A stretch of DNA of 64,000 nt from Chloroflexi bacterium UBA4730 (GTDB taxonomy: Bacteria > Chloroflexota > Limnocylindria > P2-11E), in NCBI GenBank assembly GCA_002404155.1, contig DHJC01000092.1, forward strand, positions 10,636 to 74,635, in the 5' to 3' direction. The translations under genes were made by a program, and so were the position numbers. Of the stretch, positions 8,904-57,549 are shown one piece after another. Under the pieces are notes generated by a model. The model was given only the letters and a program-made list of their open reading frames with translations, had not been told where the DNA came from and did not search any database. Position 1 is the first letter of the stretch, and each line of letters starts with the position of its first letter.

Positions 8904-8928
8904 GCTCGCGATCGCAAGGGGGTCGCGG

Positions 8929-9182: not shown

Positions 9183-9599
9183 TTACGTGGCGGAAGGCGA
9201 AGCAAGCGTTGCGACGAGTGCGCGAACGCGTTGCTCGATCCCGTCTCGCACGATGCGGAACGCCGCGAGTCGCTCGTCCTCGGTGCCGCGCGCGAGCGCG
9301 GGATCGGCGAACTTCCAGCGCAGCTGGAGCGTGGCGCCCGGCGGGATCGGGCAGTTCGCATCGCACACGGTGACGCAGACATCGAACGGCCCCACCAGCT
9401 CATCGATCGACTTGCTCCGCTGCCGAGAGATGTCGACCCCGACCTCGCGCATCGCGCGAACGGCGAGCGGGTGCAGCGCGCTCGCGACCGTGCCGGCGCT
9501 CTCGGCGATGAAGCGGTCGCCGGCCATCGCCCACAGGAACCCTTCGGCCATCTGCGAGCGCGCCGCGTTGTGACCGCAAAGGAAAACGACGCGCGTCAT
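9183..9599 (-). CDS. arsC: arsenate reductase, LMW-PTP (thioredoxin-coupled) type
   Basis: 138 aa. CGHNAARSQMAEG (CX5R P-loop) near the N-terminus plus downstream Cys pair (VCVTVCDANCP). Confidence 0.88.
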   Translation of the reverse strand: MTRVVFLCGHNAARSQMAEGFLWAMAGDRFIAESAGTVASALHPLAVRAMREVGVDISRQRSKSIDELVGPFDVCVTVCDANCPIPPGATLQLRWKFADPALARGTEDERLAAFRIVRDGIEQRVRALVATLASPSAT

Positions 9600-9619
9600 T
9601 CCTCTCTATCGTCGCACGC

Positions 9620-10921: not shown

Positions 10922-10969
10922 CCGGGCTAGGCTTGCCCCCATTCACCCATCTTCCGAGGCGGAGGTCCC

Positions 10970-12804: not shown

Positions 12805-12834
12805 GCCCGCCCTAGAAGCCCCGCGCGACCCCGG

Positions 12835-13092
12835 TCACTGCACGTCGATCCGCTCGCGAGGCGCGCCCGGCCCATCGCGCTGGTCGGATTCGATCCAATG
12901 ATCCAGGAATGCCCGCAGCGCGAGCAGCTGCTCGCGCCATGCGGCACGCATATGGGTGCGCGTCTCATCCGGGACGACCGTCCGAATGACGCTCTCGATC
13001 TGGTCTCCAACGCGGTAGACCGGTCGCTCCAATCGGGCGAGCCGAGCCTCGAGCTCCTTGATCCGTGTCTCCAGCGCCGTCTGATCCGTCAT
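12835..13092 (-). CDS. 85-aa coiled-coil protein coupled to the ArsA-like ATPase
   Basis: MTDQTALETRIKELEARLARLE... ATG overlaps the ArsA-like stop (ATGA at 13089-13092). Confidence 0.55.
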   Translation of the reverse strand: MTDQTALETRIKELEARLARLERPVYRVGDQIESVIRTVVPDETRTHMRAAWREQLLALRAFLDHWIESDQRDGPGAPRERIDVQ

Positions 13093-14297: not shown

Positions 14298-14347
14298 TCG
14301 GTCAGGGTACCCGTCGATGGATAGGCTGAGCCGACGGTGGGAACGAG

Positions 14348-36355: not shown

Positions 36356-36402
36356 CAAGTCCATCGGACTAGCCTATGTGGCAGTTACGGGCCTACGATG
36401 CC

Positions 36403-38508: not shown

Positions 38509-39599
38509 GCCACCGGATCACCCTGATCCCCGGCGACGGCACGGGCCCGGAGATCGTCGCGGCGACCTGTCGGGCCATCGAGGCGACCGGCGTCGAGATC
38601 GAGTGGGACCGCCGGGAGATCGGCCTGCCCGCGATCGCGAGGTACGGCACACCGTTCCCGCCGGAGGCGATCGAGTCCATTCGAACGAACAAGGTGGGCC
38701 TGAAGGGCCCGCTCACGACCGAGCTCGGGAAGGGGTTCCGCTCGGTGAACGTCGCGCTCCGCAGGGAGTTCGACCTCTACGCGAATCTGCGTCCGGCGAA
38801 GACGTATCCGGGCGTGCGCGCGCCGATGGGCAACGTCGACCTCGTCGTGGTCCGCGAGAACATCGAGGACCTGTACGCCGGCATCGAATTCGATCTCGGG
38901 ACCCCCGAGCTCGCGACGGTGCGCGCCGTCATCGAACAAGCCGGCAACACGAAGATCCGCGAGGACGCCGCCATCTCGATCAAGACCATCTCCGAGATGG
39001 GCAGCCGCCGGATCGTGAAGTTCGCGTTCGAGTACGCGAGGGCGAACGGCCGGAAGAAGGTCACCGCGGTCCACAAGGCGAACGTCATGAAGTTCACCGA
39101 CGGCCTGTTCCTCCGGGTGGCCGGCGAGGTCGCGCGGGACTATCCGGACATCGAATTCGAGGACCGGATCGTCGACAACATGTGCATGCAGCTCGTGCAG
39201 AAGCCCGAGCTGTACGACGTGCTCGTGCTGCCGAACCTGTACGGGGACATCGTGAGCGACCTCGTCGCCGGGCTCGTCGGCGGGCTCGGCGTTGCGCCGG
39301 GCGCGAACATCGGCGCGAACGGCGTGGCCGTGTTCGAGGCCATCCACGGCTCCGCCCCGAAGTACGCGGGGCAGAACAAGGTGAACCCGATGGCCCTGAT
39401 GCTCGCGGGCACGCTCATGCTCCGGCACATCGGCGAGCGCGCGGCCGGGGACCGGCTCGAGCGCGCGATCGCCGCGGTCGTGGCCGTCGGCAAGGACGTC
39501 ACCTACGACCTCAAGCCGAATCGGGACGACCCGACGGCCGTCGGCACGAGGGAGTTCGCCGACGCCGTGATCACGCAGCTGGCGGCGGTCCATGCCTGA
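38505..39599 (+). CDS. NAD-dependent isocitrate/homoisocitrate dehydrogenase family protein
   Basis: 364 aa. LIPGDGTGPEI, ANLRPAK, VVVRENIEDLYAG, LPNLYGDIVSD, HGSAPKYAG. ATGA overlap with the aconitase. Confidence 0.88.
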   Translation: MSHRITLIPGDGTGPEIVAATCRAIEATGVEIEWDRREIGLPAIARYGTPFPPEAIESIRTNKVGLKGPLTTELGKGFRSVNVALRREFDLYANLRPAKTYPGVRAPMGNVDLVVVRENIEDLYAGIEFDLGTPELATVRAVIEQAGNTKIREDAAISIKTISEMGSRRIVKFAFEYARANGRKKVTAVHKANVMKFTDGLFLRVAGEVARDYPDIEFEDRIVDNMCMQLVQKPELYDVLVLPNLYGDIVSDLVAGLVGGLGVAPGANIGANGVAVFEAIHGSAPKYAGQNKVNPMALMLAGTLMLRHIGERAAGDRLERAIAAVVAVGKDVTYDLKPNRDDPTAVGTREFADAVITQLAAVHA

Positions 39600-40020
39600 G
39601 CAGGACGCCAACAACCCGGAGCGGTTCCGCTACAGCACGGGGACGAAGTACGAGTTCCAGTTCGGCTACTCGCGCGCGATCCGTCACGGCAACGTGATCC
39701 GCGTTGCCGGGACGGCGGGACGTGACGACGACGGCAACCCGCTGCCGGGTGGCATCACCGATCAGACGAAGCGGGCGCTGGAGATCGTCAAGGCCGCGAT
39801 CGAGGACCTCGGCGGCCGCCTCGAGGACACGATCATGACCCGCGTGTACGTCGCCGACGTCGCCGCCATCGAGAGCGTCGCGGTGATCCACGGCGACTTC
39901 TTCCGCGACATCCGCCCGGCCACGACCATCGTCCAGGTGAACTTCATCGACTCGCGGATCCTGGTCGAGATCGAGGCCGAGGTCGTGTACGGCGGCGCGG
40001 ATGCGAAGCAGCCCACATGA
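39592..40020 (+). CDS. RidA/YjgF-family protein
   Basis: 142 aa. VIRVAGTAG...TKRALEIVKAAIEDLGG...MTRVYV...VEIEAE pattern. Confidence 0.8.
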   Translation: MPEQDANNPERFRYSTGTKYEFQFGYSRAIRHGNVIRVAGTAGRDDDGNPLPGGITDQTKRALEIVKAAIEDLGGRLEDTIMTRVYVADVAAIESVAVIHGDFFRDIRPATTIVQVNFIDSRILVEIEAEVVYGGADAKQPT

Positions 40021-41000
40021 GCCTGGTCCGCGTCGTCGTCACCGGCGCCACGGGCCAGGTGGCGTACGCCCTGCTCCCCCGCATCGCGGCCGGTGAGATG
40101 TTCGGCCCCGATACCGAGATCGACCTCCGGCTCTCGGACATTCCGCCGATGATCGAGAAGGCCACGGGCGTCGTCATGGAGCTCGAGGACGGCGCATACC
40201 CGCTCCTTGCGCGGGTGTCCGCGAGCAGCGATCGCGCCGAGAGCCACACGGGCGCCGACTGGGTCCTCCTGGTCGGGAGCGTGCCGCGCGGTCCGGGCAT
40301 GGAGCGTGGCGACCTCATCCGGAAGAACGGCCCGATCTTCGTCGACGAGGGCAAGGCGATCGCCGAGCACGCCTCGAAGAACGTGCATGTCGTGGTGATC
40401 GGCAACCCCTGCAACACCAACTGCCTCATCGCGCAGCATGCCGCCGGCGATACGGTCCCCGCCGACCGCTGGTCCGCGCTCACCCGCCTCGACCAGAACC
40501 GCGCGACGTCGCTGCTCGCGACGAAGGCGCACCTGCGCAGTAGAGACGTGAAGCACCTCGCGATCTGGGGCAACCACAGCGCGACGCTGTACCCCGACTT
40601 CACGAACGCGACGGTCGGCGGCACGCCCGCGGACCAGGTCGTCGCGCGGACCTGGCTCGAGACGGAGTTCATCCCGGCGGTGCAGAAGCGTGGCGCGGCG
40701 GTCATCGTCGCACGCGGCGCGTCCAGCGCGTTCTCCGCGGCGCAGGCGATCGTCGACCACGTGAAGAGCCTCGTCACGAAGACGCCTGGCGACGACTGGT
40801 TCAGCGCGGCGGTCGTGTCCGACGGGAGCTACGGCGTCGCCCGCGGGATCGTCTCGTCCTTCCCGCTGCGCTCGAGGGGCGATGGCGGGTACGAGATCGT
40901 CCAGGGCGTGACGGTGGACGCCTTCGCGAAGTCGAAGATCGACGCCACGATCGCCGAGCTCGAGAAGGAGCGCGAGATCGTGAAGGACCTGCTGGGCTAG
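40017..41000 (+). CDS. mdh: malate dehydrogenase (LDH-like, type 2)
   Basis: 327 aa. VVVTGATGQVAY, VGSVPRGPGMERGDL, VVIGNPCNTN, IWGNHS. Confidence 0.92.
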   Translation: MSLVRVVVTGATGQVAYALLPRIAAGEMFGPDTEIDLRLSDIPPMIEKATGVVMELEDGAYPLLARVSASSDRAESHTGADWVLLVGSVPRGPGMERGDLIRKNGPIFVDEGKAIAEHASKNVHVVVIGNPCNTNCLIAQHAAGDTVPADRWSALTRLDQNRATSLLATKAHLRSRDVKHLAIWGNHSATLYPDFTNATVGGTPADQVVARTWLETEFIPAVQKRGAAVIVARGASSAFSAAQAIVDHVKSLVTKTPGDDWFSAAVVSDGSYGVARGIVSSFPLRSRGDGGYEIVQGVTVDAFAKSKIDATIAELEKEREIVKDLLG

Positions 41001-45225: not shown

Positions 45226-46032
45226 CTAGGCCTTGGCGGACGGCGGCTCCGGCTCGCCCGGGCCCGGCTGCTGCGCCCCCTTGGAGAGAACACGCCGCTT
45301 CACCCAGGCCAAGGGGTCGTAGAACTCGGTCACGATCCGCTCCTTGAGCGGGATGATCGCGTTGTCCGTGATGTGGATGTCCTCGGGACAGACCTCGGTG
45401 CAGCACTTGGTGATGTTGCAGAACCCAAGTCCGGCCTTCTGGCGGATGAGCTCGAGGCGGTCATTCGTGTCGAGCGGATGCATCTCGAGCGCGGCGAGCC
45501 GAACGAAGAACCGTGGGCCGGCGAACGCCTTCTTATTCTCCTCGTGATCGCGGATGACATGACAGGTGTCCTGGCAGAGGAAGCATTCGATGCACTTGTG
45601 GAATTCCTGGACGCGATCGATGTCCTCCTGGTACATCCGGCGCGTGCCGTCGGCCTCCTTCGGCTTCGGCTTGAACGCGGGGATCTCCTTCGCCTTCTCG
45701 TAGTTGAATGAGACGTCCGTGACCAGGTCCTTGATGATCGGGAAGGTCTTCATCGGCGAGACCGTGATCTCCTCGCCGGGCGCGAAGGTGTTCATCCGGG
45801 TCATGCACAGGAGCCGCGCGTGGCCATTGATCTCCGCGCTGCACGAGCCACATTTGCCGGCCTTGCAGTTCCAGCGGACCGCGAGATCCGGCGCGCGGAG
45901 CGCCTGGATCCGGTGGATGACGTCGAGCACGACCATGCCCTCGACCATCGGCACGGTGTACGTCTCGAAGCGGCCGCCGGTCTTGGTCCCGCGCCAGATG
46001 GACATCGTGGCGTCGCGCGTCTCGTCGGTCAT
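45226..46032 (-). CDS. sdhB: succinate dehydrogenase/fumarate reductase iron-sulfur subunit
   Basis: 268 aa from MTDETRD. CKAGKCGSCSAEINGHARLLC (2Fe-2S), CIECFLCQDTC and CNITKCCTEVCP (4Fe-4S/3Fe-4S). ATGA overlap with sdhA. Confidence 0.92.
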   Translation of the reverse strand: MTDETRDATMSIWRGTKTGGRFETYTVPMVEGMVVLDVIHRIQALRAPDLAVRWNCKAGKCGSCSAEINGHARLLCMTRMNTFAPGEEITVSPMKTFPIIKDLVTDVSFNYEKAKEIPAFKPKPKEADGTRRMYQEDIDRVQEFHKCIECFLCQDTCHVIRDHEENKKAFAGPRFFVRLAALEMHPLDTNDRLELIRQKAGLGFCNITKCCTEVCPEDIHITDNAIIPLKERIVTEFYDPLAWVKRRVLSKGAQQPGPGEPEPPSAKA

Positions 46033-47840
46033 GCCGGCTGCTTCTCCTCGGCTAGGACGAGCTGGCGCAGCTCCTCCGGGATCTGCGGGAGTGGCTCGGT
46101 CGCGAGCTCGAGCTGGCCGCCGCGCTTGCGGGTGACGACGTTCTTCTTCCCCCACTCGGGATCCGCCTTCTGGTAGTCGTCGCGGGTGTGGCCTCCGCGG
46201 CTCTCCTGCCGCATGAGCGCCGAGCGTGCACAGGCCTTCGACACCGTGATCATCGACCGGAGGTCGAGGGCAAGGTGCCAGCCGGGGTTGAACTGCCGGT
46301 TGCCTTCGACGGTCACGCGGTCGACCCGCTCGCCGAGCACGTCGAGCGTCGCGATGGCCTGCTGGAGCTCCGCCTCGGTGCGGATGATGCCGACGAGGCG
46401 CTGCATCGTCTCCTGTAGCTCGGCATGGAGCGCGTACGGGTTCTCGGTCCCCTCGCCGTCGAACGGCGCGAGCATCGAGCGCGCGGCCGCCTCCACCTGC
46501 GCGTCATCCACCGCGCGGGCGTTCGTCCGGCTCGCATAGGCCGCCGCGCCGGCACCGGCCCGGCGGCCGAACACGAGCAGATCCGAGAGGGAGTTCCCGC
46601 CGAGCCGGTTCGCGCCGTGCATACCCGCCGCGACCTCGCCCGCAGCGAAGAGCCCGGGCACCGTCGCCGCGGCCGTCTCGGGCTCGACCCGCACGCCACC
46701 CATGAAGTAGTGGCACGTCGGGCCGATCTCCATGGCGGTCGTCGTGATGTCGACGTCGGCCAGCTGCTTGAACTGTTGATACATCGACGGCAGCCGCTTC
46801 TTGATGAACTCCGGCGAGCGGCGCGACGCGATGTCGAGGTACACACCGCCGTGCGGAGTGCCGCGACCGGCCTTCACCTCGGTGTTGATCGCGCGCGCGA
46901 CCTCGTCGCGCGGCAGGAGGTCCGGTGTGCGGCGGTTGTTCTTCTTGTCCTCGTACCACGCGTCGGCCTCGCGCTCGTTCTCGGCGGTATCGGCCCGAAA
47001 GAACTCGGGGATGTAATCGAACATGAACCGCTTGCCCTCGTTGTTCGTCAGCATGCCGCCGTCTCCACGGACGCCCTCGGTCACGAGCAGGCCACGGACG
47101 CTCGGGGGCCACACCATCCCCGTCGGGTGGAACTGGACCATCTCCATGTCGATGAGGTCCGTGCCCGCGTCGAGGGCCATCGCGATCCCGTCGCCGGTGT
47201 ACTCCCACGAGTTGGACGTGATCTTCCACGCCTTCCCACCGCCGCCGGTCGCGAGGACCACGGCACGCGCGCCGAAGAGGACGAACTTCCCGCTTTCCCG
47301 CCAGTAGCCGAACGCGCCCGCGATCTTGCCGCCGTCGGTGAGGAGGCGCTGGAGCGTGCACTCCATGTATACGTCGATGCCCTTGTGCACCGCGTGCTGC
47401 TGGAGGATGCGGATCATCTCGAGCCCGGTGCGGTCGCCGACGTGCGCGAGCCGCGCGTAGCGGTGGCCGCCGAAGTCTCGCTGGAGGATGAGTCCGTCAC
47501 TCGTCCGATCGAACAGGGCACCCCACTCCTCGAGCTCGAGCACGCGGTCCGGCGCCTCCTGGGCGTGCAGCTGCGCCATCCGCCAGTTGTTGAGGAGCTT
47601 GCCGCCGCGCATCGTGTCTCGAAAGTGGACGCGCCAGTTGTCCTCCTTCCACACATTGCCGAGCGCGGCGGCGATGCCGCCTTCGGCCATGACCGTGTGA
47701 GCCTTCCCGAGGAGCGACTTGCAGATGAGCGCCGTGTGCGCGCCCGCGGCCGACGCCTCGATCGCCGCGCGCAGCCCCGCACCGCCGGCCCCGACCACGA
47801 TCACGTCGTAGTCGTGCCGCTCGATCCCCTCTTTGCTCAT
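46029..47840 (-). CDS. sdhA: succinate dehydrogenase/fumarate reductase flavoprotein subunit
   Basis: 603 aa. VIVVGAGGAGLRAA, KAHTVMAEGG (FAD-His region), QFHPTG, RGGHTR. Confidence 0.95.
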   Translation of the reverse strand: MSKEGIERHDYDVIVVGAGGAGLRAAIEASAAGAHTALICKSLLGKAHTVMAEGGIAAALGNVWKEDNWRVHFRDTMRGGKLLNNWRMAQLHAQEAPDRVLELEEWGALFDRTSDGLILQRDFGGHRYARLAHVGDRTGLEMIRILQQHAVHKGIDVYMECTLQRLLTDGGKIAGAFGYWRESGKFVLFGARAVVLATGGGGKAWKITSNSWEYTGDGIAMALDAGTDLIDMEMVQFHPTGMVWPPSVRGLLVTEGVRGDGGMLTNNEGKRFMFDYIPEFFRADTAENEREADAWYEDKKNNRRTPDLLPRDEVARAINTEVKAGRGTPHGGVYLDIASRRSPEFIKKRLPSMYQQFKQLADVDITTTAMEIGPTCHYFMGGVRVEPETAAATVPGLFAAGEVAAGMHGANRLGGNSLSDLLVFGRRAGAGAAAYASRTNARAVDDAQVEAAARSMLAPFDGEGTENPYALHAELQETMQRLVGIIRTEAELQQAIATLDVLGERVDRVTVEGNRQFNPGWHLALDLRSMITVSKACARSALMRQESRGGHTRDDYQKADPEWGKKNVVTRKRGGQLELATEPLPQIPEELRQLVLAEEKQPA

Positions 47841-47873
47841 TTCCGGCTCATTTCCGGCTCATCTCCGGCTCAC
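47841..47873 (-). repeat. 11-bp tandem repeat x3 (minus strand TGAGCCGGA[AG]A) at the sdhC-sdhA junction
   Basis: Plus strand ttccggctcat (47841-51), ttccggctcat (47852-62), ctccggctcac (47863-73). A partial fourth copy gctcat ends at the sdhA start (47840). Confidence 0.95.
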
Positions 47874-48640
47874 GAGATCCAGCGGGGATCGACGATGACG
47901 CCCATCGCGACGAGGCGGATGTAGAGGTCGGTGAGGCCGACGACGACGAGGCTCGCCCAGGCCCACCGGTTGTGGCGCACGTTCAGCCGGTTGGAATAGG
48001 TCCAGAGCCGGAACCGGAGCGATGCCTTGTGGAACGAGTCGAGGTAGCCGCCGACGAGGTAGCGCGCCGAGTGGCAGCCCAACGTGTAGCCGGTGAGCAG
48101 CAGGACGTTCGCGACCATGATCACCGTGCCGAGGCCGATGCCGAAGTGCCCGTGGAAGTTGAATGCCTCGATCGCGTCCCACCAAAGGACGACCAGGACC
48201 AGCACCGCGATGTACAGCGTGTAGCGGTGGAGGTTCTGGATGATGAACGGGAAGCGCGTCTCGCCGCTGTACGTCTTCGGCGCGTCGGGGACGAGGCACG
48301 CCGGCGGTGACCTGAAGAAGCCGCGGTAGTACGAGCGGCGGTAGTAATAGCAGGTGAAGCGGAACGCGAGCGGCGAGCCGACGATGAGGATCGCCGGCGA
48401 AAGGTTCCACCACGAGCCGAGCAGCGGGAGCGTGGGGTGCACGCAGTTCTGCGCGAGGCACGGCGAGTAGAACGGCGAGAGGTACGGATCCGCGTAGTAG
48501 TTGCCGTTCGCCAGACTCGCCCACGTCGCGTAGACGACGAAGCCGCCAAGGACGACGACGTAGATGAGTGGCTCGACCCACCAGAGGTCCTTCCGCTCCA
48601 CGCGGTCCCCGATCCGGCGCACGCCGGAGGCCGTCGCCAT
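47870..48640 (-). CDS. sdhC: succinate dehydrogenase membrane anchor, single large subunit (actinobacterial Sdh1-type)
   Basis: ORF 47870..48694 (GTG); ATG 48640 preferred. Five or six hydrophobic helices with conserved His/Tyr-rich loops (FRFTCYYYRRSYYRGF, LGCHSARYLVGG). Position upstream of sdhA-sdhB. Confidence 0.8.
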   Translation of the reverse strand: MATASGVRRIGDRVERKDLWWVEPLIYVVVLGGFVVYATWASLANGNYYADPYLSPFYSPCLAQNCVHPTLPLLGSWWNLSPAILIVGSPLAFRFTCYYYRRSYYRGFFRSPPACLVPDAPKTYSGETRFPFIIQNLHRYTLYIAVLVLVVLWWDAIEAFNFHGHFGIGLGTVIMVANVLLLTGYTLGCHSARYLVGGYLDSFHKASLRFRLWTYSNRLNVRHNRWAWASLVVVGLTDLYIRLVAMGVIVDPRWIS

Positions 48641-48699
48641 CGGTCGAACGCTAGGCCGCGAAGTGCCCTGCTGACAAGGACATGGATGGGACACGAACC

Positions 48700-50001: not shown

Positions 50002-50672
50002 CCCAGCCGCCGCACCGCGAGTGGCCGCTCGCCGGAGCGATCCACCATGAACGCGCGGCCACCCTCGCGTCCGCTCACGACTTCGACCAGCTGCTCGTTC
50101 TCGTAGCTCGCGGCGACGCCGTCGTCGAGCGCGATCCCTTCAGGCAGGCCCGCCGCGATCTCGCGCGGGTAGACCATCGGACGCCGCTCCTCGCTGTCGT
50201 AGTGCGGGGTCGCGCTGCCCTTCAGGAATCCGAGCCCGTCGCGCAGTGCGCCGAGCTCCGGCGTGAACGAGTCGGTCGTGCCCCCTTCGAACCAGCAGAT
50301 GCACCCGGCGGACCAGCCGGTGAGGACGGTGCCGGCCTCGTACGCGGCGCGGAGCGCGCGGTCGACGCCGTGGACACGCCAGATCGCGAGCATGTTCGCG
50401 GTGTTGCCGCCGCCGACGATCACGACGTCCTGGTCGCGCACAAGCCTATCGATGTCGCCGATCGCGCGATCGAACAGCAACAGATGACTGAGCTCGCACT
50501 CGCGTCCGGCGAGCTGCTGGTAGAAGGTCAACAGGTACCCGGCGGAGTCGCCTGAGGCCGTCGGGAGGAACAGCACCTTGGGCCGCTTCGGCTTCGCGAA
50601 CGAGAGCACGTAATCGACGAGCGCGGGATGGAAAAGCTCGCGGCCGCCGCACGGGATGATCCGCCGGGTCAC
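49998..50672 (-). CDS. peptidase S51 (dipeptidase E-like)
   Basis: 224 aa. VIVGGGNTANML and nucleophile motif GWSAGCICWFEGG. Confidence 0.82.
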   Translation of the reverse strand: MTRRIIPCGGRELFHPALVDYVLSFAKPKRPKVLFLPTASGDSAGYLLTFYQQLAGRECELSHLLLFDRAIGDIDRLVRDQDVVIVGGGNTANMLAIWRVHGVDRALRAAYEAGTVLTGWSAGCICWFEGGTTDSFTPELGALRDGLGFLKGSATPHYDSEERRPMVYPREIAAGLPEGIALDDGVAASYENEQLVEVVSGREGGRAFMVDRSGERPLAVRRLG

Positions 50673-50681
50673 GCGCGCATG

Positions 50682-51071
50682 CTAGGCGGGCTCGGTGCGC
50701 CGCAGCGCGAGCCCAAAGACCGCGGGGATGACGAGGAACCCGATCGCGAAGACCGCGATCCAGAGGAACAGTGCGGTCGGATTGCAGGTGAGCTGCTGCG
50801 CGCAGCCCTCGATCGAGCGCTGCCGCTCGATCAGGAGGAGCGGCAGGCTCGCGGGCGCCGCCACGGCCGACGCGGTGACGAACGCGGTCGCGACGGTCGG
50901 GATCGAGCGCGGGATCCCGCCGGCGCGCGGGTCGATGCGCCGCGCGGACCACGCGGCCCAGGCCATCGAAGTCGCCGATGCGGCCGCGGCGAACTGGATG
51001 GACCAGCCGCGCGGACCCCAGACTTCCCAGACCGTGAGCGCGGCCCAGTACGCGAGCTTGATGGTCGTCAT
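50682..51071 (-). CDS. hypothetical 4-TM membrane protein
   Basis: Start at M27 of ORF 50682..51149 (MTTIKLAYWAALTVWEVW...). Trp/Ala-rich hydrophobic helices. No recognisable family. Confidence 0.4.
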   Translation of the reverse strand: MTTIKLAYWAALTVWEVWGPRGWSIQFAAAASATSMAWAAWSARRIDPRAGGIPRSIPTVATAFVTASAVAAPASLPLLLIERQRSIEGCAQQLTCNPTALFLWIAVFAIGFLVIPAVFGLALRRTEPA

Positions 51072-51127
51072 GCGGCCGACGAGAAGATTGAGCGTGCGGA
51101 AGTGCGGGCGCGGTCGCGAGGGCGCGT

Positions 51128-51238
51128 CTAGCGGTAGTTCGTCCACCACTTCTGAAGGAAGTAGAGCGTCGCGATCAGGATGATCGTCGTCACCGCGACC
51201 ATGTAGAACTCGTTGGCCTCGCCGATCTCTGTGATCAT
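51128..51238 (-). CDS. 36-aa single-TM protein at the end of the Rieske/cyt b operon
   Basis: MITEIGEANEFYMVAVTTIILIATLYFLQKWWTNYR. The ATG is preceded by TAGGAGAGAAGCG (the stop of the cytochrome c gene followed by a GGAGAG Shine-Dalgarno, 7-nt spacing). Not in the ORF track (too short). Confidence 0.5.
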   Translation of the reverse strand: MITEIGEANEFYMVAVTTIILIATLYFLQKWWTNYR

Positions 51239-51248
51239 CGCTTCTCTC

Positions 51249-52340
51249 CTACTTCAGGCTCTTCAGATAGGCGACGATGTCGGTGATGTTCTCCGGCGTC
51301 AGCTGACCGCCCTCGGCCTGCGCGAAGATCGGCATGATGATCCCGGGCTTCACCTTCGGCGCGTGCGACTCCCAGTCGATGAGCCACTGATCGCTCGAGC
51401 CGGCCGCGGCCTTCGCGGCCTTGTTCTCGGTGTTGAGCGGACCCGCGGAGCCGTAGGTGCCCAGGTTCGGCGCCTGCGGGACCGGCGAGGTCGTGCCCGT
51501 CGTGAAGCTGTGGCAGGTCGTGCAGTAGGTGAGCGTCAGCTGGTGGCCGCGCTCGACCGGATCGGTGCTCGTGACCACCGGCTTGGGCGGGTTGGGCACC
51601 TCGGAGAGCGCGAGCTCGCGACGGATCGTGACGATGTCGCCCCAGTCCGCGTCGGTCCCATGCTCGATGAACGCCATGAGCTGGCTGATCTGCTCGTCGT
51701 TCAGCGAACCGCCGTCGGCGGTGCCCCAGGCCGGCATCGAGATGCCGGGCGGCGGCTTCGGGCGGCCGCGGTGGATGGTGAGGTCGAGGAGCGACTCGGT
51801 GACGGCGAGCTTGGCCGGATCGGCCTTGATGGTGTCGTACTTGAAGTCGGGCTTGTTGAGCGGCAGGCCGACCCCGACGTCGCCCTTGCCGTCCTTGCCG
51901 TGGCAGTCGAAGCAGAAGTTCGCGTAGAGGTTCCGGCCCCGCGTGACGGCCGCGTCCTGCTGGTGCTGCGCGGCGACCTTGTCCCGCCACGTCTCGCTGC
52001 TCGCGTCGGCGCGCACGACGAGGAGCGTGAAGAGGTACGCGCCGACGAGCGCGAAGACGGCGAACAGCATGAAGCCGCCGAGCACGATCTTCTTGTCGAG
52101 GTTGCCGGCGATCTCGAGCGGGTCGGGCGAGCTTGGGATCGGCGCGACGTAGTACGGCGTCGGCTGCTCGATCGTCTCGCCGGCACCGTAGTGCTGGCGG
52201 ATGAGCTCGACGCCCTCGACCGGCTTCTGATCGGGCTCGACCACGTTCTGGTGGCGGATGACGAACGCGAAGAACCCGATCAGCCCGACGAAGAGGACGA
52301 TGCTGAGGCCGGCGAGGACGACGTTGATGTCGATCGTCAC
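51249..52340 (-). CDS. membrane-anchored diheme cytochrome c
   Basis: GTG 52340 overlaps the Rieske stop (GTGA). Two N-terminal TM helices. Two CxxCH motifs (CFDCH, CTTCH) with downstream Met ligand candidates (ISMPAW, IIMPIF). Confidence 0.88.
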   Translation of the reverse strand: MTIDINVVLAGLSIVLFVGLIGFFAFVIRHQNVVEPDQKPVEGVELIRQHYGAGETIEQPTPYYVAPIPSSPDPLEIAGNLDKKIVLGGFMLFAVFALVGAYLFTLLVVRADASSETWRDKVAAQHQQDAAVTRGRNLYANFCFDCHGKDGKGDVGVGLPLNKPDFKYDTIKADPAKLAVTESLLDLTIHRGRPKPPPGISMPAWGTADGGSLNDEQISQLMAFIEHGTDADWGDIVTIRRELALSEVPNPPKPVVTSTDPVERGHQLTLTYCTTCHSFTTGTTSPVPQAPNLGTYGSAGPLNTENKAAKAAAGSSDQWLIDWESHAPKVKPGIIMPIFAQAEGGQLTPENITDIVAYLKSLK

Positions 52341-52885
52341 GCCTTGATCTCCAGCACCGACGGGTCCCACTCGTTCTTCTGGCGGTCGATGACGTTGAGC
52401 GGGTTCGTGTCGACGATGAGCGTGCCGTTCTGCTCGGCGATGTGGAACAGCTGCAGCGGCTTCGGCGCCGGGCCGCCCTCCACGACCGCGGTCTTCTTGT
52501 TGTAGAGCGACCCGTGGCACGGGCAGTGGAACCGGTTCTCCGCCGCCACGTACGGCACGGTGCAACCGAGGTGGGTGCACTTGCGGTACGCCGCGATGAT
52601 CCCGCCCTCCGGGTGGAGGAGGAAGAACCGGCCCAGGGTGTTGAGGATCGGCACGTCCTGCGTCGACTGGAACTGGGCCATGAGCGAGGCGGTGGAGCCC
52701 ACCGGCACCTTCGCGCCGAGCCCGACGATCTTGTTCGGCTTCATGAACGGATAGATGAGCGCGCTCATCTCGCCGAGCGCGAGCAGGGTGCCGCCGAGGA
52801 AGCCGAGCCGCAGCAGCTGCCGGCGCTTGATGCGGCCGAGGATCCCGCTGCTGCTCGTCGTGACGTCGTCGTGCGGTCGGATCAC
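52337..52885 (-). CDS. Rieske [2Fe-2S] protein
   Basis: GTG 52885 overlaps the upstream stop (GTGA). Twin-Arg-like RIKRRQLLRLGFLGG, then CTHLGCTV...CPCHGSLY. Confidence 0.9.
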   Translation of the reverse strand: MIRPHDDVTTSSSGILGRIKRRQLLRLGFLGGTLLALGEMSALIYPFMKPNKIVGLGAKVPVGSTASLMAQFQSTQDVPILNTLGRFFLLHPEGGIIAAYRKCTHLGCTVPYVAAENRFHCPCHGSLYNKKTAVVEGGPAPKPLQLFHIAEQNGTLIVDTNPLNVIDRQKNEWDPSVLEIKA

Positions 52886-53664
52886 GGGGCGAAGCACTGG
52901 TGCGTCGAGGGCAAGGCCCACGGCGCGTACATATCCATACCTGGACCGCGCATGGAGGTGCCGACGATGGTCAGCACGAGGTACACGCACACGAAGCCCG
53001 TCCAGACGGCGATCATCCATTCGCGGGTGTTGCCGTGGAAGATGATCTTCACCAGGAGCACGAGCGCGGCGGACAGCACGATCATCGTCGTGATCGGGAT
53101 GATGTAGTCAGGGAAGAGCTGCTTCCCGCCGGGGAAGTTGTCGCTCGCGAACTGGATGTAGCCGTGGTCCTTGAGCAGCTTGTCCAGGAGGATGAGCGAG
53201 AACGTGAGCGCCGTCGCGTACGCGGCGGCGAAGTACGCGATCCGCTTCCCGTTCGGCGAGGTGAAGTAGATCCCGACGCCCTCACGCGACCGGTCGATGT
53301 ACGGGATCGCCATCATGAACACGATCCAGACGGTCGGCACGATGACACCGGCCAGGCCTTTGTCCATGTGCAGCAGCAGCTCCTGCAGGTTGAGCAGGTA
53401 CCACGGCGCTTTCGACGGGTTCGGCGTGCAGTCCGGCGTGCTGTGGTCCTGGAGCGGCGCGTTGAACGCGGCGGAGATGATGAACAGGCCGATGAACCAG
53501 AGCATCGCCGCGATGAACTCGATGACCAGCAGGTGCGGCCAGACCATCGCGGTGTCCTCGACGCGCTTGTCCACCCGCACGACCGAGTCCTGGCGGACGA
53601 ACGCGAGGAGCCGGAGGCGCTTCTCCTGGCCGGAGAAGGGCTGTGGGCCGCGCGGTGTCGTCAT
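52882..53664 (-). CDS. cytochrome b C-terminal domain protein (b6f subunit IV-like, extended)
   Basis: 260 aa. PNPSKAPWYLLNLQELL (PEWY-like Qo motif) and additional TM helices. Confidence 0.85.
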   Translation of the reverse strand: MTTPRGPQPFSGQEKRLRLLAFVRQDSVVRVDKRVEDTAMVWPHLLVIEFIAAMLWFIGLFIISAAFNAPLQDHSTPDCTPNPSKAPWYLLNLQELLLHMDKGLAGVIVPTVWIVFMMAIPYIDRSREGVGIYFTSPNGKRIAYFAAAYATALTFSLILLDKLLKDHGYIQFASDNFPGGKQLFPDYIIPITTMIVLSAALVLLVKIIFHGNTREWMIAVWTGFVCVYLVLTIVGTSMRGPGMDMYAPWALPSTHQCFAP

Positions 53665-53667
53665 CTA

Positions 53668-54399
53668 CTACAGCGGTCCGGAGATGCCGCCGTCTTTGCG
53701 GATCCGCCAGAAGTGGATGGCAATGAGGAACCCGGTCGCCAGCGGCAACGCGACGACGTGGAGCACGTAGAACCGCAGCAGCGCGTTCGCGCCGAGCTGG
53801 AAGCCACCGAAGAGCACGAAGGCGAATTCGTTGCCGACGAACGGGGCGGCCTGCGCGATGTTGTACCCGACGGTCACCGCCCAGAACGCGAGCTGGTCCC
53901 ACGGGAGCAGATAGCCGGTGTAGCTCAGAACGAGCGTGAGCACGAAGAGGAGCGTGCCGACCACCCAGTTGAACTCCCGCGGCGGCTTGTACGAGCCGGT
54001 GTAGAAGACCCGGACCATGTGCAGGAACACGGTGATGACCATGCCGTGCCCGGCCCAGCGGTGCATGTTGCGGAGGATCTGGCCGAACACGACGACGGTC
54101 TCCAGGTCCTTGATGTCCGCGTAGGCGAGATCGGTGGTCGGGCGGTAGTAGAACATCAGCAGCGTCCCGGTGAGGGTCAGCACGAGGAACAGGAAGAACG
54201 AGAGCCCACCCATGCACCACGTGTACGGGATCGCGAGCGCGTGGCGGCGCACCTTGACCGGGTGCAGGTGCAGGAACACGTTCGTGAAGACCGCGAGCGA
54301 CTGGTTCTTGCGCGAGTCGGGGTAGCCGTGGCGGAAGAGCGACTTCCAGAGGGGGCCGCTCTTGACCCGGCGCCACATTTCGGCCGGCAGCTCGAGCAT
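53668..54399 (-). CDS. cytochrome b6-like protein (N-terminal four-helix heme-binding domain of cytochrome b)
   Basis: 243 aa. [23 protein letters not shown] and [22 protein letters not shown] supply the four heme-ligand His. The ATG directly abuts the TAG of the upstream flavoprotein (TAGATG). Confidence 0.92.
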
Positions 54400-56421
54400 C
54401 TAGTGGGTGTGCGCTGCTTCAGATGATTCCACAGCAGTGCCCTTTCCGTTGGTGTGGGGATGCCCGTTGCCGTTGCCGTTGAGCTGCTTGTAGCCGGACG
54501 CGACGACGGGATCGTACATGGGAAGCGGCCGGATCGATTTGCGGCCTCCGACGGTGAGGTCGAGGTGGATCTCGTCGTCGATGGATTCTTTGGGCAGGAC
54601 CCGCCCGACCGAGGGCGTCACGGCGCCGTAGCGGTTCATCGTGATCGCGTCGGTGGGGCAGCGGATGACGCAGAGCGCACAGCGGATGCAGGCGGTCTCA
54701 TCGAGGAAGAACGCGACGCCCTGCTCCCACTTCTTGGCCTCGGCCACGCCGGGGATGGAGCCGTCGTCGACGATGTCGGCCATGTCGACGAGGTGGATGA
54801 CGTCCATCGGGCAGACGTCGACGCAGCCACCGCAGATGATGCAGAGCTCGCCGATGATCTCGATGTTGAAGTTGCACTTCAGGCAGCGATCGGACTCCGC
54901 GACGGCCTGCGCGGTCTCGTAGCCGCGGTTCACCTCGAGGAACAGACCGCGCCGCTCACCCTTCGTGAGCTTCGGCATCTCCTGCCGGGGGATCCGGTCG
55001 TAGTCGACGGACATGTTGTGGTAGATCCGCGCGAGCGGGCCTTCGCCGGCGATCTGGCCCATGTTGTCCGGCGTGCTCGAGCGGCGGAGCGTCACGATCT
55101 CGTGGTACTCCGGGACGTCGACGGACGCGGCGATCGGATCGAGGTACCGCGCGATTTGCTGCGCGGCGGAACGTCCCTCGGCGACAGCCTCGATGATCGT
55201 CGTCGGGCCGGTGCGGTAGTCGCCAGCGATGAAGATGGACTCGACCTCGGTCTGGAACGTCTCCGGATCGACCTTCACGTCGCGCCAGCGCTTCACCCGG
55301 AACTGCTCGAAGTCGGCCATGAACGTGCGATCGGGCGCCTGACCGAGCGCCAGAAGCACGGTCTCGCACGGGATCTCGAACTCGGAGCCCTCGATGGGCT
55401 CGGGCGCGCGCCGGCCGCTCGCGTCCGGATTGCCGAGGCGGTTCCGGACGAACTTCACGCCGCGAACGTGGCCGCTCGCGTCGGCGAGGACCTCGACCGG
55501 CGACGCGAGGTACACGAACTCCATTCCCTCGCGTGCCGTCTCGCCGAGCTCCTCTTCGTCCACGACCATCTCGTCGCGGCTCCGTCGATAGACGACGTAG
55601 ACGTCCTCGGCGCCCAGGCGCCATGAGGTCGACGAGCAGTCCATCGCGGTGTAGCCACCGCCGAGGACCACGACCCGCTTCCCCACTTCCACGGGGCGGC
55701 CGCGGTACGCGCGCTCGAGGAACACGATCCCGGCCATGACGCCCTGGCTGTCCTCACCGGGGATCCCGATGTAGGTCGGCTCGAAGCAGCCGGCGGTCAC
55801 GAGGACCGCGTCGAAGCGCTCGTGCAGCTCGCGCATCGTGATGTCGCGGCCGACGTAGGTGGACATCTTCAGCTCGACGTTCTCGTTCACGATGCCGGCG
55901 ACGTCGCGGTCGATGACCTCGCGCGGCAGGCGGAACGGCGGCACGCCAGCGAGCGTCGTGCCGCCAGCCTGGTCCAGCGCGTCGTACACGGTGACGCCGA
56001 AGCCGAGCTTCGCGAGATCGCTCGCCGCGGAGAGGCCGGAGCAGCCGGCGCCGACGACCGCGACCTTCTTCGCGGGTGGCCCATAGATGGGCGGGGCGGG
56101 CTGGCGGTACGCCTTCCCGTCCACCGTGACGTTCTCGTGGGTCCAGTCGGACAGGAACTTCTTGACGTAGCGGATCGAGAGCGGCTTGTCGACCTCTTTA
56201 CGGCGACAGGCCGTCTCGCACGGGGCCGCGCAGACGCTGCCGCAGATGCTCGCCATGGGGTTCGGGTCGAGGGCGAGCTCCCAGGCTTTCTCGAATTCCC
56301 CGGCTGCCGCGAGGTTCAGATAGCCCCGGCAGTTCGTCTTCACCGGGCAGGCTTCCTGGCAGGGGATGTTGTCCTGATACCAGGCGGGCCCGACCTCGAC
56401 CACCTGGTACAGCTCTCTCAC
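54400..56421 (-). CDS. GltD/NfnB/SudA-like NAD(P)H-dependent FAD Fe-S oxidoreductase fused to a C-terminal 2x[4Fe-4S] ferredoxin domain
   Basis: 673 aa. N-terminal Cys clusters (CQEACPVKTNC, ICGSVCAAPCETAC), VAVVGAGCSGLSAA (FAD), VVVLGGGYTAMDC (NADPH). C-terminal CIICGGCVDVCP and CIRCALCVIRCP. His/Gly/Asn-rich tail. Confidence 0.85.
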   Translation of the reverse strand: MRELYQVVEVGPAWYQDNIPCQEACPVKTNCRGYLNLAAAGEFEKAWELALDPNPMASICGSVCAAPCETACRRKEVDKPLSIRYVKKFLSDWTHENVTVDGKAYRQPAPPIYGPPAKKVAVVGAGCSGLSAASDLAKLGFGVTVYDALDQAGGTTLAGVPPFRLPREVIDRDVAGIVNENVELKMSTYVGRDITMRELHERFDAVLVTAGCFEPTYIGIPGEDSQGVMAGIVFLERAYRGRPVEVGKRVVVLGGGYTAMDCSSTSWRLGAEDVYVVYRRSRDEMVVDEEELGETAREGMEFVYLASPVEVLADASGHVRGVKFVRNRLGNPDASGRRAPEPIEGSEFEIPCETVLLALGQAPDRTFMADFEQFRVKRWRDVKVDPETFQTEVESIFIAGDYRTGPTTIIEAVAEGRSAAQQIARYLDPIAASVDVPEYHEIVTLRRSSTPDNMGQIAGEGPLARIYHNMSVDYDRIPRQEMPKLTKGERRGLFLEVNRGYETAQAVAESDRCLKCNFNIEIIGELCIICGGCVDVCPMDVIHLVDMADIVDDGSIPGVAEAKKWEQGVAFFLDETACIRCALCVIRCPTDAITMNRYGAVTPSVGRVLPKESIDDEIHLDLTVGGRKSIRPLPMYDPVVASGYKQLNGNGNGHPHTNGKGTAVESSEAAHTH

Positions 56422-56430
56422 GCCATAGTC

Positions 56431-56931
56431 ATGCTACGGATGCGTAGTGGAGTGTCAAAAGACGGGTCGATCATCGAGCGCAAGACGCGCTTCGATGGCT
56501 CGGTGCAGGAATTCGCGTGCCGAGCCCTCCTGGTCGAGCCGGGGAAGCGGGCGGTCATCCGCTACGACCTCGATCGCGACTGGCACGTCGGCGGGATGGT
56601 CCTCCCGAAGGGCGGCTACACCGCCGGACACTTCTGGATCGACCGGCCGTACAACGTCTACCACTGGCTCGAGAACGGGAAGACCCTCGCGTACTACTTC
56701 AACGTCGGACTGGTCGATGACATCACCGACGCGCAGGTAGCCTGGCGCGATCTCATCATCGACGTGCTGGTGAAGCCGGACGGGGCCATCGACATCCTCG
56801 ACGAGGATGAGGTCCCTGCGGATCTCGCGCCCGAGCACCGCGGCACGATCGCGCGGGCGCTCGAGCAGATCGTGACGAACCCGAAGCGGCTGGTGAGCGA
56901 GATCGAGCGCGAGACCCGCGACCTCCTTTAG
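56431..56931 (+). CDS. DUF402-domain protein (FomD/nucleoside-diphosphatase-like fold)
   Basis: In-frame part of ORF 55822..56931; the upstream part is the antisense shadow of the flavoprotein. WHVGGMVLPKGGYTAGHFWIDRPYNVYHW...YYFNVGLV...WRDLIIDVLV is DUF402-like. Start (56431, 56440 or 56452) uncertain. Confidence 0.65.
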   Translation: MLRMRSGVSKDGSIIERKTRFDGSVQEFACRALLVEPGKRAVIRYDLDRDWHVGGMVLPKGGYTAGHFWIDRPYNVYHWLENGKTLAYYFNVGLVDDITDAQVAWRDLIIDVLVKPDGAIDILDEDEVPADLAPEHRGTIARALEQIVTNPKRLVSEIERETRDLL

Positions 56932-56940
56932 CGTTCGGCC

Positions 56941-57549
56941 ATGTCCTCCTTCCTTACCGGTCTCATCGCCGGCTTCGCCATCGCGATGCCGCCGGGCGCG
57001 GTGACGTCGCTCATCGTGCGCATCGGGCTGCAGCGCGGGTTCCCGTCCGCGCTCGCCGCGGGCTGGGGCACCGCGACGGTCGACGGCGTCTACTGCGTCG
57101 TCGCGGTGCTCGCCGGCGCGGCGCTCGTCCCGCTCCTCGGCGCGATCGACCCGCTGCTCCGCGTCGCCACCGGCGTCGTCCTCATCGGCCTCGGGGTACG
57201 CGGGATGCTGAGCGCGCGAGGCGAGCCGACGAGTGCGGGCGCGCCGGACGCGCGCGATCTGGTCGCGACCTATGTGCGGTTCATCGCCATCACGATGGTG
57301 AACCCCGCGACCCTCGCCTACTTCCTCGCGATCGCGCTCGGCTTCGCCGGCGCGGTGCTGAACGACGCCCGCGCCTTCATCGTCGGCGTCTTCGCCGCGT
57401 CGCTGACGTGGCACGCGATCCTCGCGGTCCTCAGCGGCTCGCTGCACGGACGGCTGAGCCCCAACACGCGCACCGTGCTCACGATCGTGGCGAACGGCGT
57501 GGTGATCGCGCTCGGGATCCGGATCCTCGCCCAGGTGGTCGCGGGCTAG
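56941..57549 (+). CDS. LysE/RhtB-family amino-acid exporter
   Basis: 202 aa. N-terminal FLTGLIAGFAIAMPPGAVTSLIV. Six hydrophobic helices. Confidence 0.82.
   Translation: MSSFLTGLIAGFAIAMPPGAVTSLIVRIGLQRGFPSALAAGWGTATVDGVYCVVAVLAGAALVPLLGAIDPLLRVATGVVLIGLGVRGMLSARGEPTSAGAPDARDLVATYVRFIAITMVNPATLAYFLAIALGFAGAVLNDARAFIVGVFAASLTWHAILAVLSGSLHGRLSPNTRTVLTIVANGVVIALGIRILAQVVAG

Follow-up and report, generated by a model that had tools for sequence, protein, structure and literature searches.

A Rieske/cytochrome b6 operon of Limnocylindria headed by the gene for an NfnB-like flavoprotein-ferredoxin fusion

Complexes that combine a Rieske protein and a cytochrome b with an FAD-containing subunit have been described for anammox bacteria. 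For the Kuenenia complexes encoded by Kuste4569-74 and Kustd1480-85, formation of NADPH from quinol without drawing on the proton-motive force has been proposed (PMC12954380), and Hauser et al. (2025; PMC12954380) describe a subunit IV with five transmembrane (TM) helices, a chain of four clusters that ends at FAD, Rieske potentials near +300 mV and, in AlphaFold 3 models, an additional heme b with His43 of each Kuste4571 monomer as a ligand. Kuenenia complexes containing cytochrome b and a large oxidoreductase subunit are highly expressed, according to de Almeida et al. (2016) as cited by Dibrova et al. (2017; PMC5600118). The related APWY clade, as defined by Kao and Hunte (2014; PMC4122944), includes Chloroflexi and had no characterised member at the time; Dibrova et al. 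(2013; 2017, PMC5600118) delineate a subfamily G, note that it occurs together with large NAD(P)-binding Fe-S proteins, and report that a short cytochrome b correlates with a CxGG motif. We examined an operon with these traits in a 64,000-nucleotide window of contig DHJC01000092.1 from Chloroflexi bacterium UBA4730 (assembly GCA_002404155.1), a member of the Limnocylindria. Its six genes encode a flavoprotein, cytochrome b6, a subunit IV-like protein (SUIV), a Rieske protein, a diheme cytochrome c and a 36-amino-acid (aa) TM peptide.

On balance, we favour the view that these genes encode a single membrane quinol:cytochrome c complex carrying a cytoplasmic NfnB-like flavoprotein, through which NADP+ would be reduced by quinol without drawing on the proton-motive force. 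Several lines of evidence speak for one complex. Gene junctions are zero-gap or overlapping and a single promoter-like site lies upstream, the flavoprotein is homologous from end to end to that of a Brocadia operon, and its linkage to Rieske/cytochrome b genes recurs with varied gene order and varied c-cytochromes. Moreover, its cofactor cysteines are invariant and its NADP(H)-site sequence and fold match those of NfnB, NfnI-L and NfnA/StnC. The five-helix SUIV, the heme-cn cysteine and His44 of cytochrome b6 match the Kuenenia AlphaFold 3 models, including their four-cluster path to FAD, and the reported high expression of the homologous Kuenenia complexes points the same way.

Gene layout and cofactor sites

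The operon occupies positions 51128-56421 on the minus strand as six co-directional, translationally coupled open reading frames (ORFs; Table 1). JGI gene calls on an identical 82.8-kb contig (Ga0120152_1000019, sample 3300012011) give the same boundaries for all six, in agreement with a preliminary description of this DNA. Third-position GC ranges from 0.86 to 0.96, as expected in a genome of 69% GC, and the ORFs are therefore taken to be genuine genes. The junctions, read from the sequence, were at first all thought to be zero-gap or overlapping. This holds for the flavoprotein/b6 junction, CAC-TAG-ATG with no gap, and for the GTGA overlaps at the SUIV/Rieske and Rieske/cytochrome c junctions; b6 and SUIV are 3 nt apart (TAG-TAG-ATG), and the 36-aa ORF is preceded by a 10-nt spacer with GGAGAG. 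A sequence scan found no terminator-like site on the minus strand within the operon. The sole minus-strand sigma-70-like match in 50500-57500, TTGACA-16-TAGCAT, lies upstream of the first gene (~0.6 matches are expected by chance on both strands). Because the -10 element of this candidate ends so close to the GTG start, it would yield an almost leaderless transcript. The candidate also lies inside the opening codons of the divergently transcribed DUF402 gene (gene end 56931, plus strand).

A domain profile search with the flavoprotein returns Fer4_20, Pyr_redox_2 and Fer4_7 (aa 527-592) from Pfam. Its PDB relatives by sequence are NfnA (9n5u), NfnABC (9bov), StnC (8oh5), NfnB (4ylf, 5jca) and GltD (2vdc), and a fold search returned the same entries; GltD and DPD rank behind NfnA of the Bfu-type NfnABC, StnC and NfnB/NfnI-L among solved relatives. 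The original assignment as a GltD/NfnB fold fused to a C-terminal 2x[4Fe-4S] domain is thus borne out, with the fold search supporting the NfnB/GltD core only, since the AlphaFold 2 monomer model (mean pLDDT 60.7) is good for the FAD/NADP domains only. Seven N-terminal cysteines, invariant or nearly so in two family alignments (one of 36 sequences), correspond to the pair of [4Fe-4S] sites seen in NfnB/GltD-type proteins, and RCxxC and two CxxCxxCxxxCP motifs are invariant in the family alignments. No TM helix is predicted in the protein. The top NCBIfam model is PRK12771, a GltD-like 'NAD(P)-binding protein' with a C-terminal Fer4 domain, matched at 445.6 bits against a cut-off of 516 over profile positions 43-563 of 566; judged by sequence, the flavoprotein is a divergent subfamily with the same architecture.

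The stretch GGGxTAMD...VYRR(S/T)xxEM can be aligned with its counterparts in NfnB (4ylf), NfnI-L (5jca) and NfnA/StnC, proteins that we take to bind NADP(H) at this site. The PDB title of 5jca states 'NADP(H) bound'. This alignment of the Rossmann stretch makes NADP(H) specificity of the flavoprotein likely. The His/Gly/Asn-rich tail, singled out earlier as an oddity, is real, and proves to be the variable end of a C-terminal extension whose remaining part is conserved. This end differs in length among orthologues and closes with His in 16 of the 16 compared. Within the conserved part, D616 is nearly invariant across three clades, and the KES..D element recurs in clades whose flavoproteins are 48% and 36% identical to that of the window.

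Such strong sequence and fold matches might mean that the gene is an ordinary gltD, or the NfnB half of an NfnAB pair, that adjoins a bc operon by chance. This reading is effectively refuted. Neither the 64-kb window nor the 22-kb annotated locus contains an NfnA-like or GltB-sized gene, in line with the earlier remark that gltB is missing nearby, and all NCBIfam GltD/gltA models fall far below their cut-offs (TIGR01317, 201 versus 447; TIGR01318, 283 versus 483). In addition, the extra ferredoxin domain is invariant and the gene's partners are conserved across lineages. The NfnAB assignment in particular was rejected for want of an adjacent NfnA (FNR-like, [2Fe-2S]), the immediate neighbours being the DUF402/LysE genes and cytochrome b6.

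Domain matches, motifs and hydropathy also uphold the identities first given to the other five products. In Pfam, the b6 subunit matches Cytochrome_B and the Rieske protein matches Rieske. Cytochrome b6 is of the four-helix type, with invariant His heme ligands 113, 127, 214 and 229 and with Cys62 of helix A in a CMGG sequence, the CxGG motif of heme cn; it matches spinach b6 (6rqf) at E = 4e-47. An invariant His44 (codon 54268-54270) lies in NVFLHLHP. Cytochrome b is split, and SUIV, the product of the gene 3 nt downstream, has five predicted TM helices (hydropathy peaks) and the Qo-site motif NPSKAPWY, in which APWY replaces PEWY. Family matches of SUIV are weak (Pfam Cytochrom_B_C, E = 7e-4; NCBIfam ExtQ, 5e-9), and a PDB sequence search with it gave no match. 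NPSKAPWY is also found in the C-terminal half of a fused long cytochrome b of a related locus (L009), which Pfam recognises as Cytochrom_B_C.

The Rieske [2Fe-2S] protein begins with a twin-arginine-like KRRQLL sequence followed by a TM anchor and carries the boxes CTHLGC and CPCHGSLY. Its best PDB matches include cyanobacterial PetC chains (1.5e-16 to 5.7e-16) and the Kuenenia entries 9rk3 (1.6e-15) and 9rk4 (8.9e-14). The cytochrome c has 2 N-terminal TM helices and two class-I Cytochrom_C domains (CFDCH, CTTCH), and is weakly similar to CcoP and actinobacterial QcrC. For the 36-aa peptide, a single TM helix is predicted and no family match exists in Pfam or NCBIfam. The peptide is kept at the same position in a close relative, L092 (VITEISEANEFYMVLVTVFILLAIMYFLQKWWTNYR), where the gene caller overlooked it, and is a candidate small subunit. 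A 129-aa predicted membrane protein encoded next downstream has no Pfam match; a homologue follows the operon in L092, and the protein is absent from the other clades examined. It may be co-transcribed and form a further lineage-specific subunit.

Table 1. Positions of the operon genes, flavoprotein domains and adjacent features in the 64-kb window
Feature	Position	Strand	Remarks
Flavoprotein gene	54400-56421	minus	673 aa, GTG start
Cytochrome b6 gene	53668-54399	minus	243 aa
SUIV gene	52882-53664	minus	260 aa
Rieske gene	52337-52885	minus	182 aa, GTG start
Diheme cytochrome c gene	51249-52340	minus	363 aa, GTG start
TM peptide ORF	51128-51238	minus	36 aa
Sigma-70-like promoter candidate, TTGACA-16-TAGCAT	56431-56458	minus	consensus match only; ends 9 nt before GTG of first gene
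Fer4_20 domain of flavoprotein	56131-56370	minus	aa 18-97; 7 Cys (21, 25, 31, 60, 64, 68, 72)
FAD/NADP(H) Rossmann domains (Pyr_redox_2) of flavoprotein	55174-56070	minus	aa 118-416; GAGCSG, GGGYTAMD...VYRRSRDEM
2x[4Fe-4S] ferredoxin domain of flavoprotein	54646-54888	minus	invariant R512-C513-x-x-C516, then CIICGGCVDVCP ... CIRCALCVIRCP with ~40-aa insert
C-terminal extension of flavoprotein	54403-54630	minus	aa 598-673; conserved part aa 598-~648, NRYG..LPKESIDDEIHLDL..RPLPMYDP, then variable end
129-aa predicted membrane protein	50682-51071	minus	JGI call, 57 nt downstream of 36-aa ORF

The flanks agree with the peptidase and LysE neighbours named previously: a DUF402 gene and a LysE gene lie upstream on the opposite strand, and the gene of the 129-aa membrane protein and a peptidase S51 gene lie downstream. 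Genes for succinate dehydrogenase (SDH) and tricarboxylic acid (TCA) cycle enzymes (aconitase, isocitrate dehydrogenase, malate dehydrogenase) are found 3-15 kb from the operon, which places it in an aerobic setting; the 64-kb window holds neither a GltB-sized ORF nor oxidase genes. At 45226-48694 (minus strand), a protein of 256-274 aa that has no match in Pfam and might be an unusual membrane anchor precedes SdhA and SdhB. The cluster at 36376-41000 (plus strand) encodes aconitase, isocitrate dehydrogenase and malate dehydrogenase together with a RidA-like protein. Farther away are an IS110-family transposase gene (17714-18919, minus strand) and a LutB-like gene with LUD, Fer4 and CCG domains followed by two small co-directional ORFs (1748-4952, minus strand).

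Conservation of the flavoprotein-cytochrome b linkage

The nearest homologues of the flavoprotein, more than 100 in number (80-100% identity), carry for the most part the label Candidatus Limnocylindria, a class of Chloroflexota, and come overwhelmingly from soil-type metagenomes; the occasional other taxon labels at 83-84% identity are probably binning errors. One of the relatives, L092, has a flavoprotein 82% identical to that of the window and the same operon, including the 36-aa ORF and the divergent DUF402 gene. The first homologue search returned only Limnocylindria above 80% identity, and the breadth of the family was established with a 50%-clustered library and a profile search. The library contains a large family of proteins of ~570-700 aa that share the architecture of the flavoprotein.

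Rieske/cytochrome b genes adjoin the flavoprotein gene in six of eight diverse family members, the window included, with a changing arrangement. The order is flavoprotein-Rieske-b6-SUIV-multiheme c in P0280 (36% identity) and flavoprotein-b6-SUIV-Rieske-cytochrome c/cupredoxin in L005 (48%), where the last gene encodes a cytochrome c fused to a cupredoxin domain. L008 (38%) keeps the gene order of the window and adds an EB_dh-domain gene, and L009 (36%) has flavoprotein-Rieske-fused long cytochrome b-multiheme c. The most elaborate cluster, in L011 (35%; 7001-15136), reads flavoprotein-x-FixS-Rieske-b6-SUIV-cytochrome c-cytochrome c-ccoN-ccoO. Its cytochrome b6 lacks the heme-cn cysteine, and because the cbb3 genes (COX1/CcoN, FixO/CcoO) directly follow the two c-cytochromes, the module is embedded in an aerobic respiratory gene cluster.

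A cyt b6 alignment scan with one genome per GTDB species gave 80 loci from many phyla, with b6 54-64% identical to that of the window, which were classed by tblastn and ORF analysis. A full-length flavoprotein is encoded at 20 of the 80. It lies directly upstream of b6 in 18 loci labelled Limnocylindria or Chloroflexota; in Brocadia (L042) and in a planctomycetotal locus (L080) its place is between Rieske and b6. The adjacency proposed in the preliminary description is accordingly conserved in L092, in most of the diverse family members and in a quarter of the cyt b6 loci, and the module extends well beyond anammox bacteria, as had been suspected. Another 14 loci, all from Actinomycetota and mostly from Acidimicrobiia and Ilumatobacteraceae, encode instead a small 2x[4Fe-4S] protein directly upstream of b6 (L032, L041, L053, L057, L058, L064, L066, L072, L075, L079, L081, L084, L086, L090). 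This ferredoxin, of ~135-150 aa, is homologous to residues ~520-600 of the window flavoprotein and has the same ~40-aa insert separating the two motifs; most of the 14 share a conserved C-terminal 'GYGMR[LFW]' end, and none has an FAD/NADP domain. By its sequence, the protein looks like the docking module on its own. At the remaining loci, no flavoprotein was found within 8 kb of cyt b6; these represent Thermomicrobiales, Dehalococcoidia, Ktedonobacteria (including the isolate Dictyobacter alpinus), Nitrospinaceae, Acidobacteriota, Phycisphaerae, Poribacteria and Bacteroidota.

In a rough neighbour-joining tree of 53 cyt b6 sequences, the 18 Limnocylindria-type carriers form one clade, and the four ferredoxin-only Actinomycetota sequences that passed the trimming filter form its sister group. 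The window b6 is on a deep branch of its own, and Brocadia falls elsewhere. Together with the varied gene orders, this tree suggests an association of flavoprotein and cytochrome b that arose repeatedly, or is ancient and was then lost, rather than a chance adjacency. Limnocylindria also have a second, paralogous type of operon, represented by L005 (7001-11930) and by 18 loci within L024-L078, in which the flavoprotein (~611-690 aa) is 44-48% identical to that of the window and SUIV has no NP..APWY motif. The flanking gene order at 1-6800 is identical in L005 ('Candidatus Dormibacteraeota') and L006 ('Candidatus Sulfomarinibacteraceae', Acidobacteriota), and the L005 proteins share 85-89% identity with proteins of Limnocylindrales loci; the two metagenome-assembled genomes carry unreliable taxon labels.

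The same survey bears on the alternative that the flavoprotein is co-transcribed with the operon and functions as a soluble NADPH:acceptor oxidoreductase, for example of the ferredoxin/rubredoxin-reductase or Nfn type, without being a subunit of the complex; its expression would be co-ordinated with that of respiration. The protein lacks a TM helix, the family has stand-alone members (L007 beside a nitroreductase, L010 fused to a rubredoxin-like domain), and many relatives have the b6c core without it. Nonetheless, the linkage to Rieske/cytochrome b genes survives several rearrangements of gene order and spans cyt b6 lineages, and the ferredoxin-only variant of Actinomycetota holds the same position directly upstream of b6. 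The zero-gap TAGATG junction, and the existence and expression of Kuenenia complexes that contain cytochrome b and a large oxidoreductase subunit (Dibrova et al. 2017; PMC5600118), likewise argue against mere co-transcription, which we regard as improbable. Beside the stand-alone L007 flavoprotein, which is from Nitrospinota, lie genes for an RVT_1 reverse transcriptase, a bAvd-like protein, an mtd/FGE-sulfatase-type target and phage tail/baseplate proteins (9891-13789); the reverse transcriptase, bAvd-like and target set looks like a diversity-generating retroelement.

Proposed electron transfer between quinol and NADP(H)

If the operon does encode one complex, its core would consist of b6 with hemes bL, bH and cn, the five-helix SUIV, the Rieske protein, the membrane-anchored diheme cytochrome c and the 36-aa peptide. 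Quinol would be oxidised at Qo, with one electron passing through the Rieske protein and the diheme cytochrome c towards a terminal oxidase. The low-potential electron would cross bL, bH and cn, and from cn might proceed to FAD and NADP+ by way of four [4Fe-4S] clusters, two of ferredoxin type and two of NfnB type. NADPH would in this way be obtained from quinol without drawing on the proton-motive force, at the expense of the electron returned in the Q cycle, as in the Kartal/Hauser model. The membrane anchor of the cytochrome c and its weak likeness to QcrC and CcoP suggest, by analogy with actinobacterial bcc-aa3 supercomplexes, that it could hand electrons directly to an oxidase.

We infer the physical association of the flavoprotein with the complex, as well as the order of the cofactors, from the features described above. 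The flavoprotein most likely serves as the NADP(H) module at the membrane's N side with its ferredoxin domain facing b6/SUIV, since that module alone is retained in Actinomycetota. Most likely it serves to pass electrons between NADP(H) and the b/cn hemes, and the wire is probably reversible. The direction of flow is the least certain part of the scheme; we favour quinol-driven reduction of NADP+.

Electrons might also run through the same complex the other way, from NADPH to FAD, the four clusters and heme cn/bH, with menaquinone being reduced at Qi or the Q cycle primed. The flavoprotein-ferredoxin fusion would in that case provide the complex with an NADPH:quinone reductase of its own, analogous to the proposed feeding of electrons from ferredoxin-NADP+ reductase (FNR)/ferredoxin into heme cn of b6f during cyclic flow. 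Such flow is thermodynamically downhill, and Hauser et al. (PMC12954380), who discuss it, disfavour it on efficiency grounds only. The heme-cn motif CxGG is present, FNR co-purifies with b6f (Zhang et al. 2001, as cited in PMC5600118), and the L011 module is clustered with a cbb3 oxidase, i.e. in a forward respiratory chain. Furthermore, the host looks like an aerobic heterotroph with TCA genes next door, producing rather than needing NAD(P)H. Reverse flow would, however, dissipate ~250 mV without pumping protons, and L009 and L011 keep the flavoprotein though they are without the heme-cn cysteine. NfnB-type modules typically serve reversible or bifurcating low-potential chemistry, which also speaks against this direction. 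We consider it a serious rival, albeit a rather unlikely one.

Several observations weigh against quinol-driven NADP+ reduction by a single complex. In the nearest relatives by cyt b6 (64% identity; Thermomicrobiales, Dehalococcoidia, Ktedonobacteria), the same core occurs with no flavoprotein within 8 kb, and the flavoprotein is therefore dispensable for core function. No cyt b genes lie beside the flavoproteins of L007 and L010. The pLDDT of the AlphaFold 2 model is below 50 in the ferredoxin domain and tail and below 35 in the C-terminal extension. NAD(P)H production has not been demonstrated in anammox bacteria, and no experiment on non-anammox members is recorded (PMC12954380; PMC4122944). 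NADPH is available to an aerobic heterotroph from other sources, and the selective advantage is therefore not obvious. Finally, the Ser/Tyr pair of the Rieske protein, APWY, CxGG and His44 do not tell carriers from non-carriers among related loci; being equally present in relatives without the flavoprotein, they were rejected as evidence for bifurcation. The bifurcation or reverse flow to NAD(P)+ suggested in the preliminary description is treated here as a hypothesis; the features sometimes cited in its favour, among them the high-potential Rieske protein with its Ser/Tyr pair, are common to these sister complexes.

More tentatively, the scheme may operate in several groups of aerobic soil bacteria (Limnocylindria, a clade labelled Acidobacteriota and several unassigned lineages) as a respiratory route from quinol to NADPH that is independent of the proton-motive force. 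In these, bifurcation at Qo might send the low-potential electron to NADP+ and the high-potential electron to O2 via the diheme cytochrome c, with a modular N-side 2x[4Fe-4S] docking domain that in Acidimicrobiia also stands alone. Should the flavoprotein be wired to the b/cn hemes, direct exchange of electrons with NADP(H) would be possible for an enzyme of the complex-III type, which would alter our view of reducing power and Q-cycle balance in soil and freshwater bacteria that are very abundant. Tests of this idea have been difficult, as the only studied hosts are slow-growing anammox bacteria. The module also occurs with a simple diheme cytochrome c, in aerobes and, in L011, beside a cbb3 oxidase, which offers simpler operons for heterologous expression or structural work, and the ferredoxin-only variant of Actinomycetota amounts to a natural dissection of the docking module.

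Comparison with described complexes

Automated names give little guidance to these genes. JGI names relatives of the flavoprotein 'glutamate synthase beta subunit-like' or 'formate dehydrogenase beta/major subunit', and the pipeline names 'glutamate synthase beta subunit', 'formate dehydrogenase beta subunit' and 'ExtP' are all misleading here. The last reflects a likeness to Geobacter ExtP/ExtQ: the window b6 scores 294.2 bits against the NF040969 ExtP equivalog cut-off of 290, and SUIV weakly matches ExtQ (NF040970). The genes of the ext outer-membrane conduit are absent at the window, however, so that the name 'selenite/tellurite reduction operon' misleads and the match reflects a shared broad cytochrome b clade.

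The flavoprotein itself most resembles NfnB, NfnA of the Bfu-type NfnABC, StnC and GltD, as seen in its top sequence and fold matches and in the conserved sequence of the pyridine-nucleotide site. The partners of those proteins (NfnA-type FNR, HydB/C-like subunits, GltB) are not encoded near the window gene, whose partners are membrane cytochromes, and its C-terminal 2x[4Fe-4S] domain differs.

Cyanobacterial and chloroplast b6f complexes share with the window operon a b6 that matches 6rqf, the heme-cn cysteine, a PetC-like Rieske protein and a short single-TM peptide. There is a functional parallel as well, in that an NADP(H) flavoenzyme would be placed at the N side, as is the loosely bound FNR in b6f. 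Unlike b6f, the window operon has a diheme cytochrome c and no cytochrome f, APWY in place of PEWY, and an SUIV with five TM helices versus three. Its flavoprotein is NfnB-type with an Fe-S wire of its own, not a plant-type FNR. The b6f complexes further have PetG/L/M/N, whereas the 36-aa peptide matches no Pfam/NCBIfam family.

From its sequence features, the b6/SUIV/Rieske core belongs to the APWY clade, or subfamily G. The split b6 and SUIV, CxGG, NPSKAPWY and a Rieske protein with CxHxGC and CxCHG boxes are all present in the window operon, and APWY was found in 59 of the 61 related loci where the search pattern caught a Qo motif. The taxonomically mixed spread also agrees, including Chloroflexi, Planctomycetes, Actinobacteria and Nitrospinae. 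The architecture as a whole is of a known kind: it has been described for anammox bacteria, and Dibrova et al. note it beyond them, recording on their tree the same proximity of flavoprotein and Rieske/cytochrome b genes 'in many other cases' (PMC5600118). In view of this, and of the inclusion of Chloroflexi in the APWY clade (PMC4122944), the earlier statement that the arrangement had been discussed only for anammox is not supported as worded. The available text of the two APWY-clade papers describes no Limnocylindria operons, diheme-c version or ferredoxin-only Actinomycetota version. Likewise, a literature search whose coverage was incomplete, with the supplementary tree of Dibrova et al. 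(2017) outside it, found no paper on the architecture in Limnocylindria, with a diheme cytochrome c, beside a cbb3 oxidase, or as a ferredoxin-only variant.

The closest parallels remain the anammox complexes, for which the Brocadia orthologue stood in for the Kuenenia Kuste4570/Kustd1483 sequences. The Brocadia locus encodes a Rieske protein of 172 aa, a flavoprotein of 589 aa, b6 of 256 aa, SUIV of 240 aa, a multiheme c of 362 aa and an HAO-like octaheme protein of 588 aa, which is the layout of Kuste4569-4574. The flavoprotein is the first gene in the window operon, whereas in Brocadia it stands between Rieske and b6. On the P side, the window has a 2-TM diheme class-I cytochrome c where anammox bacteria have a hexa-/octaheme cytochrome and an HAO-like protein. 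The window operon adds a flavoprotein C-terminal extension of ~75 aa and the 36-aa peptide, and it has TCA/SDH genes in its vicinity and belongs to a soil Chloroflexota of high GC rather than to an anaerobic planctomycete.

Despite these differences, the two flavoproteins are 35% identical over aa 14-597 of the window protein (E = 2e-116), with RCLKC and both ferredoxin motifs aligned, so the homology to the anammox subunit extends over the full length. In both systems (Kuste4569-4574 and Kustd1480-1485 for Kuenenia), the operon encodes an NfnB/GltD-like FAD protein with four Fe-S sites. A five-helix SUIV, predicted here and modelled for Kuenenia, is also shared, and is likewise found in relatives without the flavoprotein, where SUIV matches reach aa 249-257. 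Both have the Rieske Ser/Tyr pair and APWY at Qo, and both have a b6-type cytochrome b with CxGG and the same conserved His. In the alignment, Brocadia His43, the first His of NIWLHLHP, corresponds to window His44. The equivalent residue lies in an (N/T)xxxHxHP motif in every N-terminus inspected (~30 loci and a five-sequence alignment), flavoprotein-less loci included. The extra inter-monomer heme modelled for Kuenenia, if real, would thus be a trait of the clade and not tied to the NADP(H) subunit.

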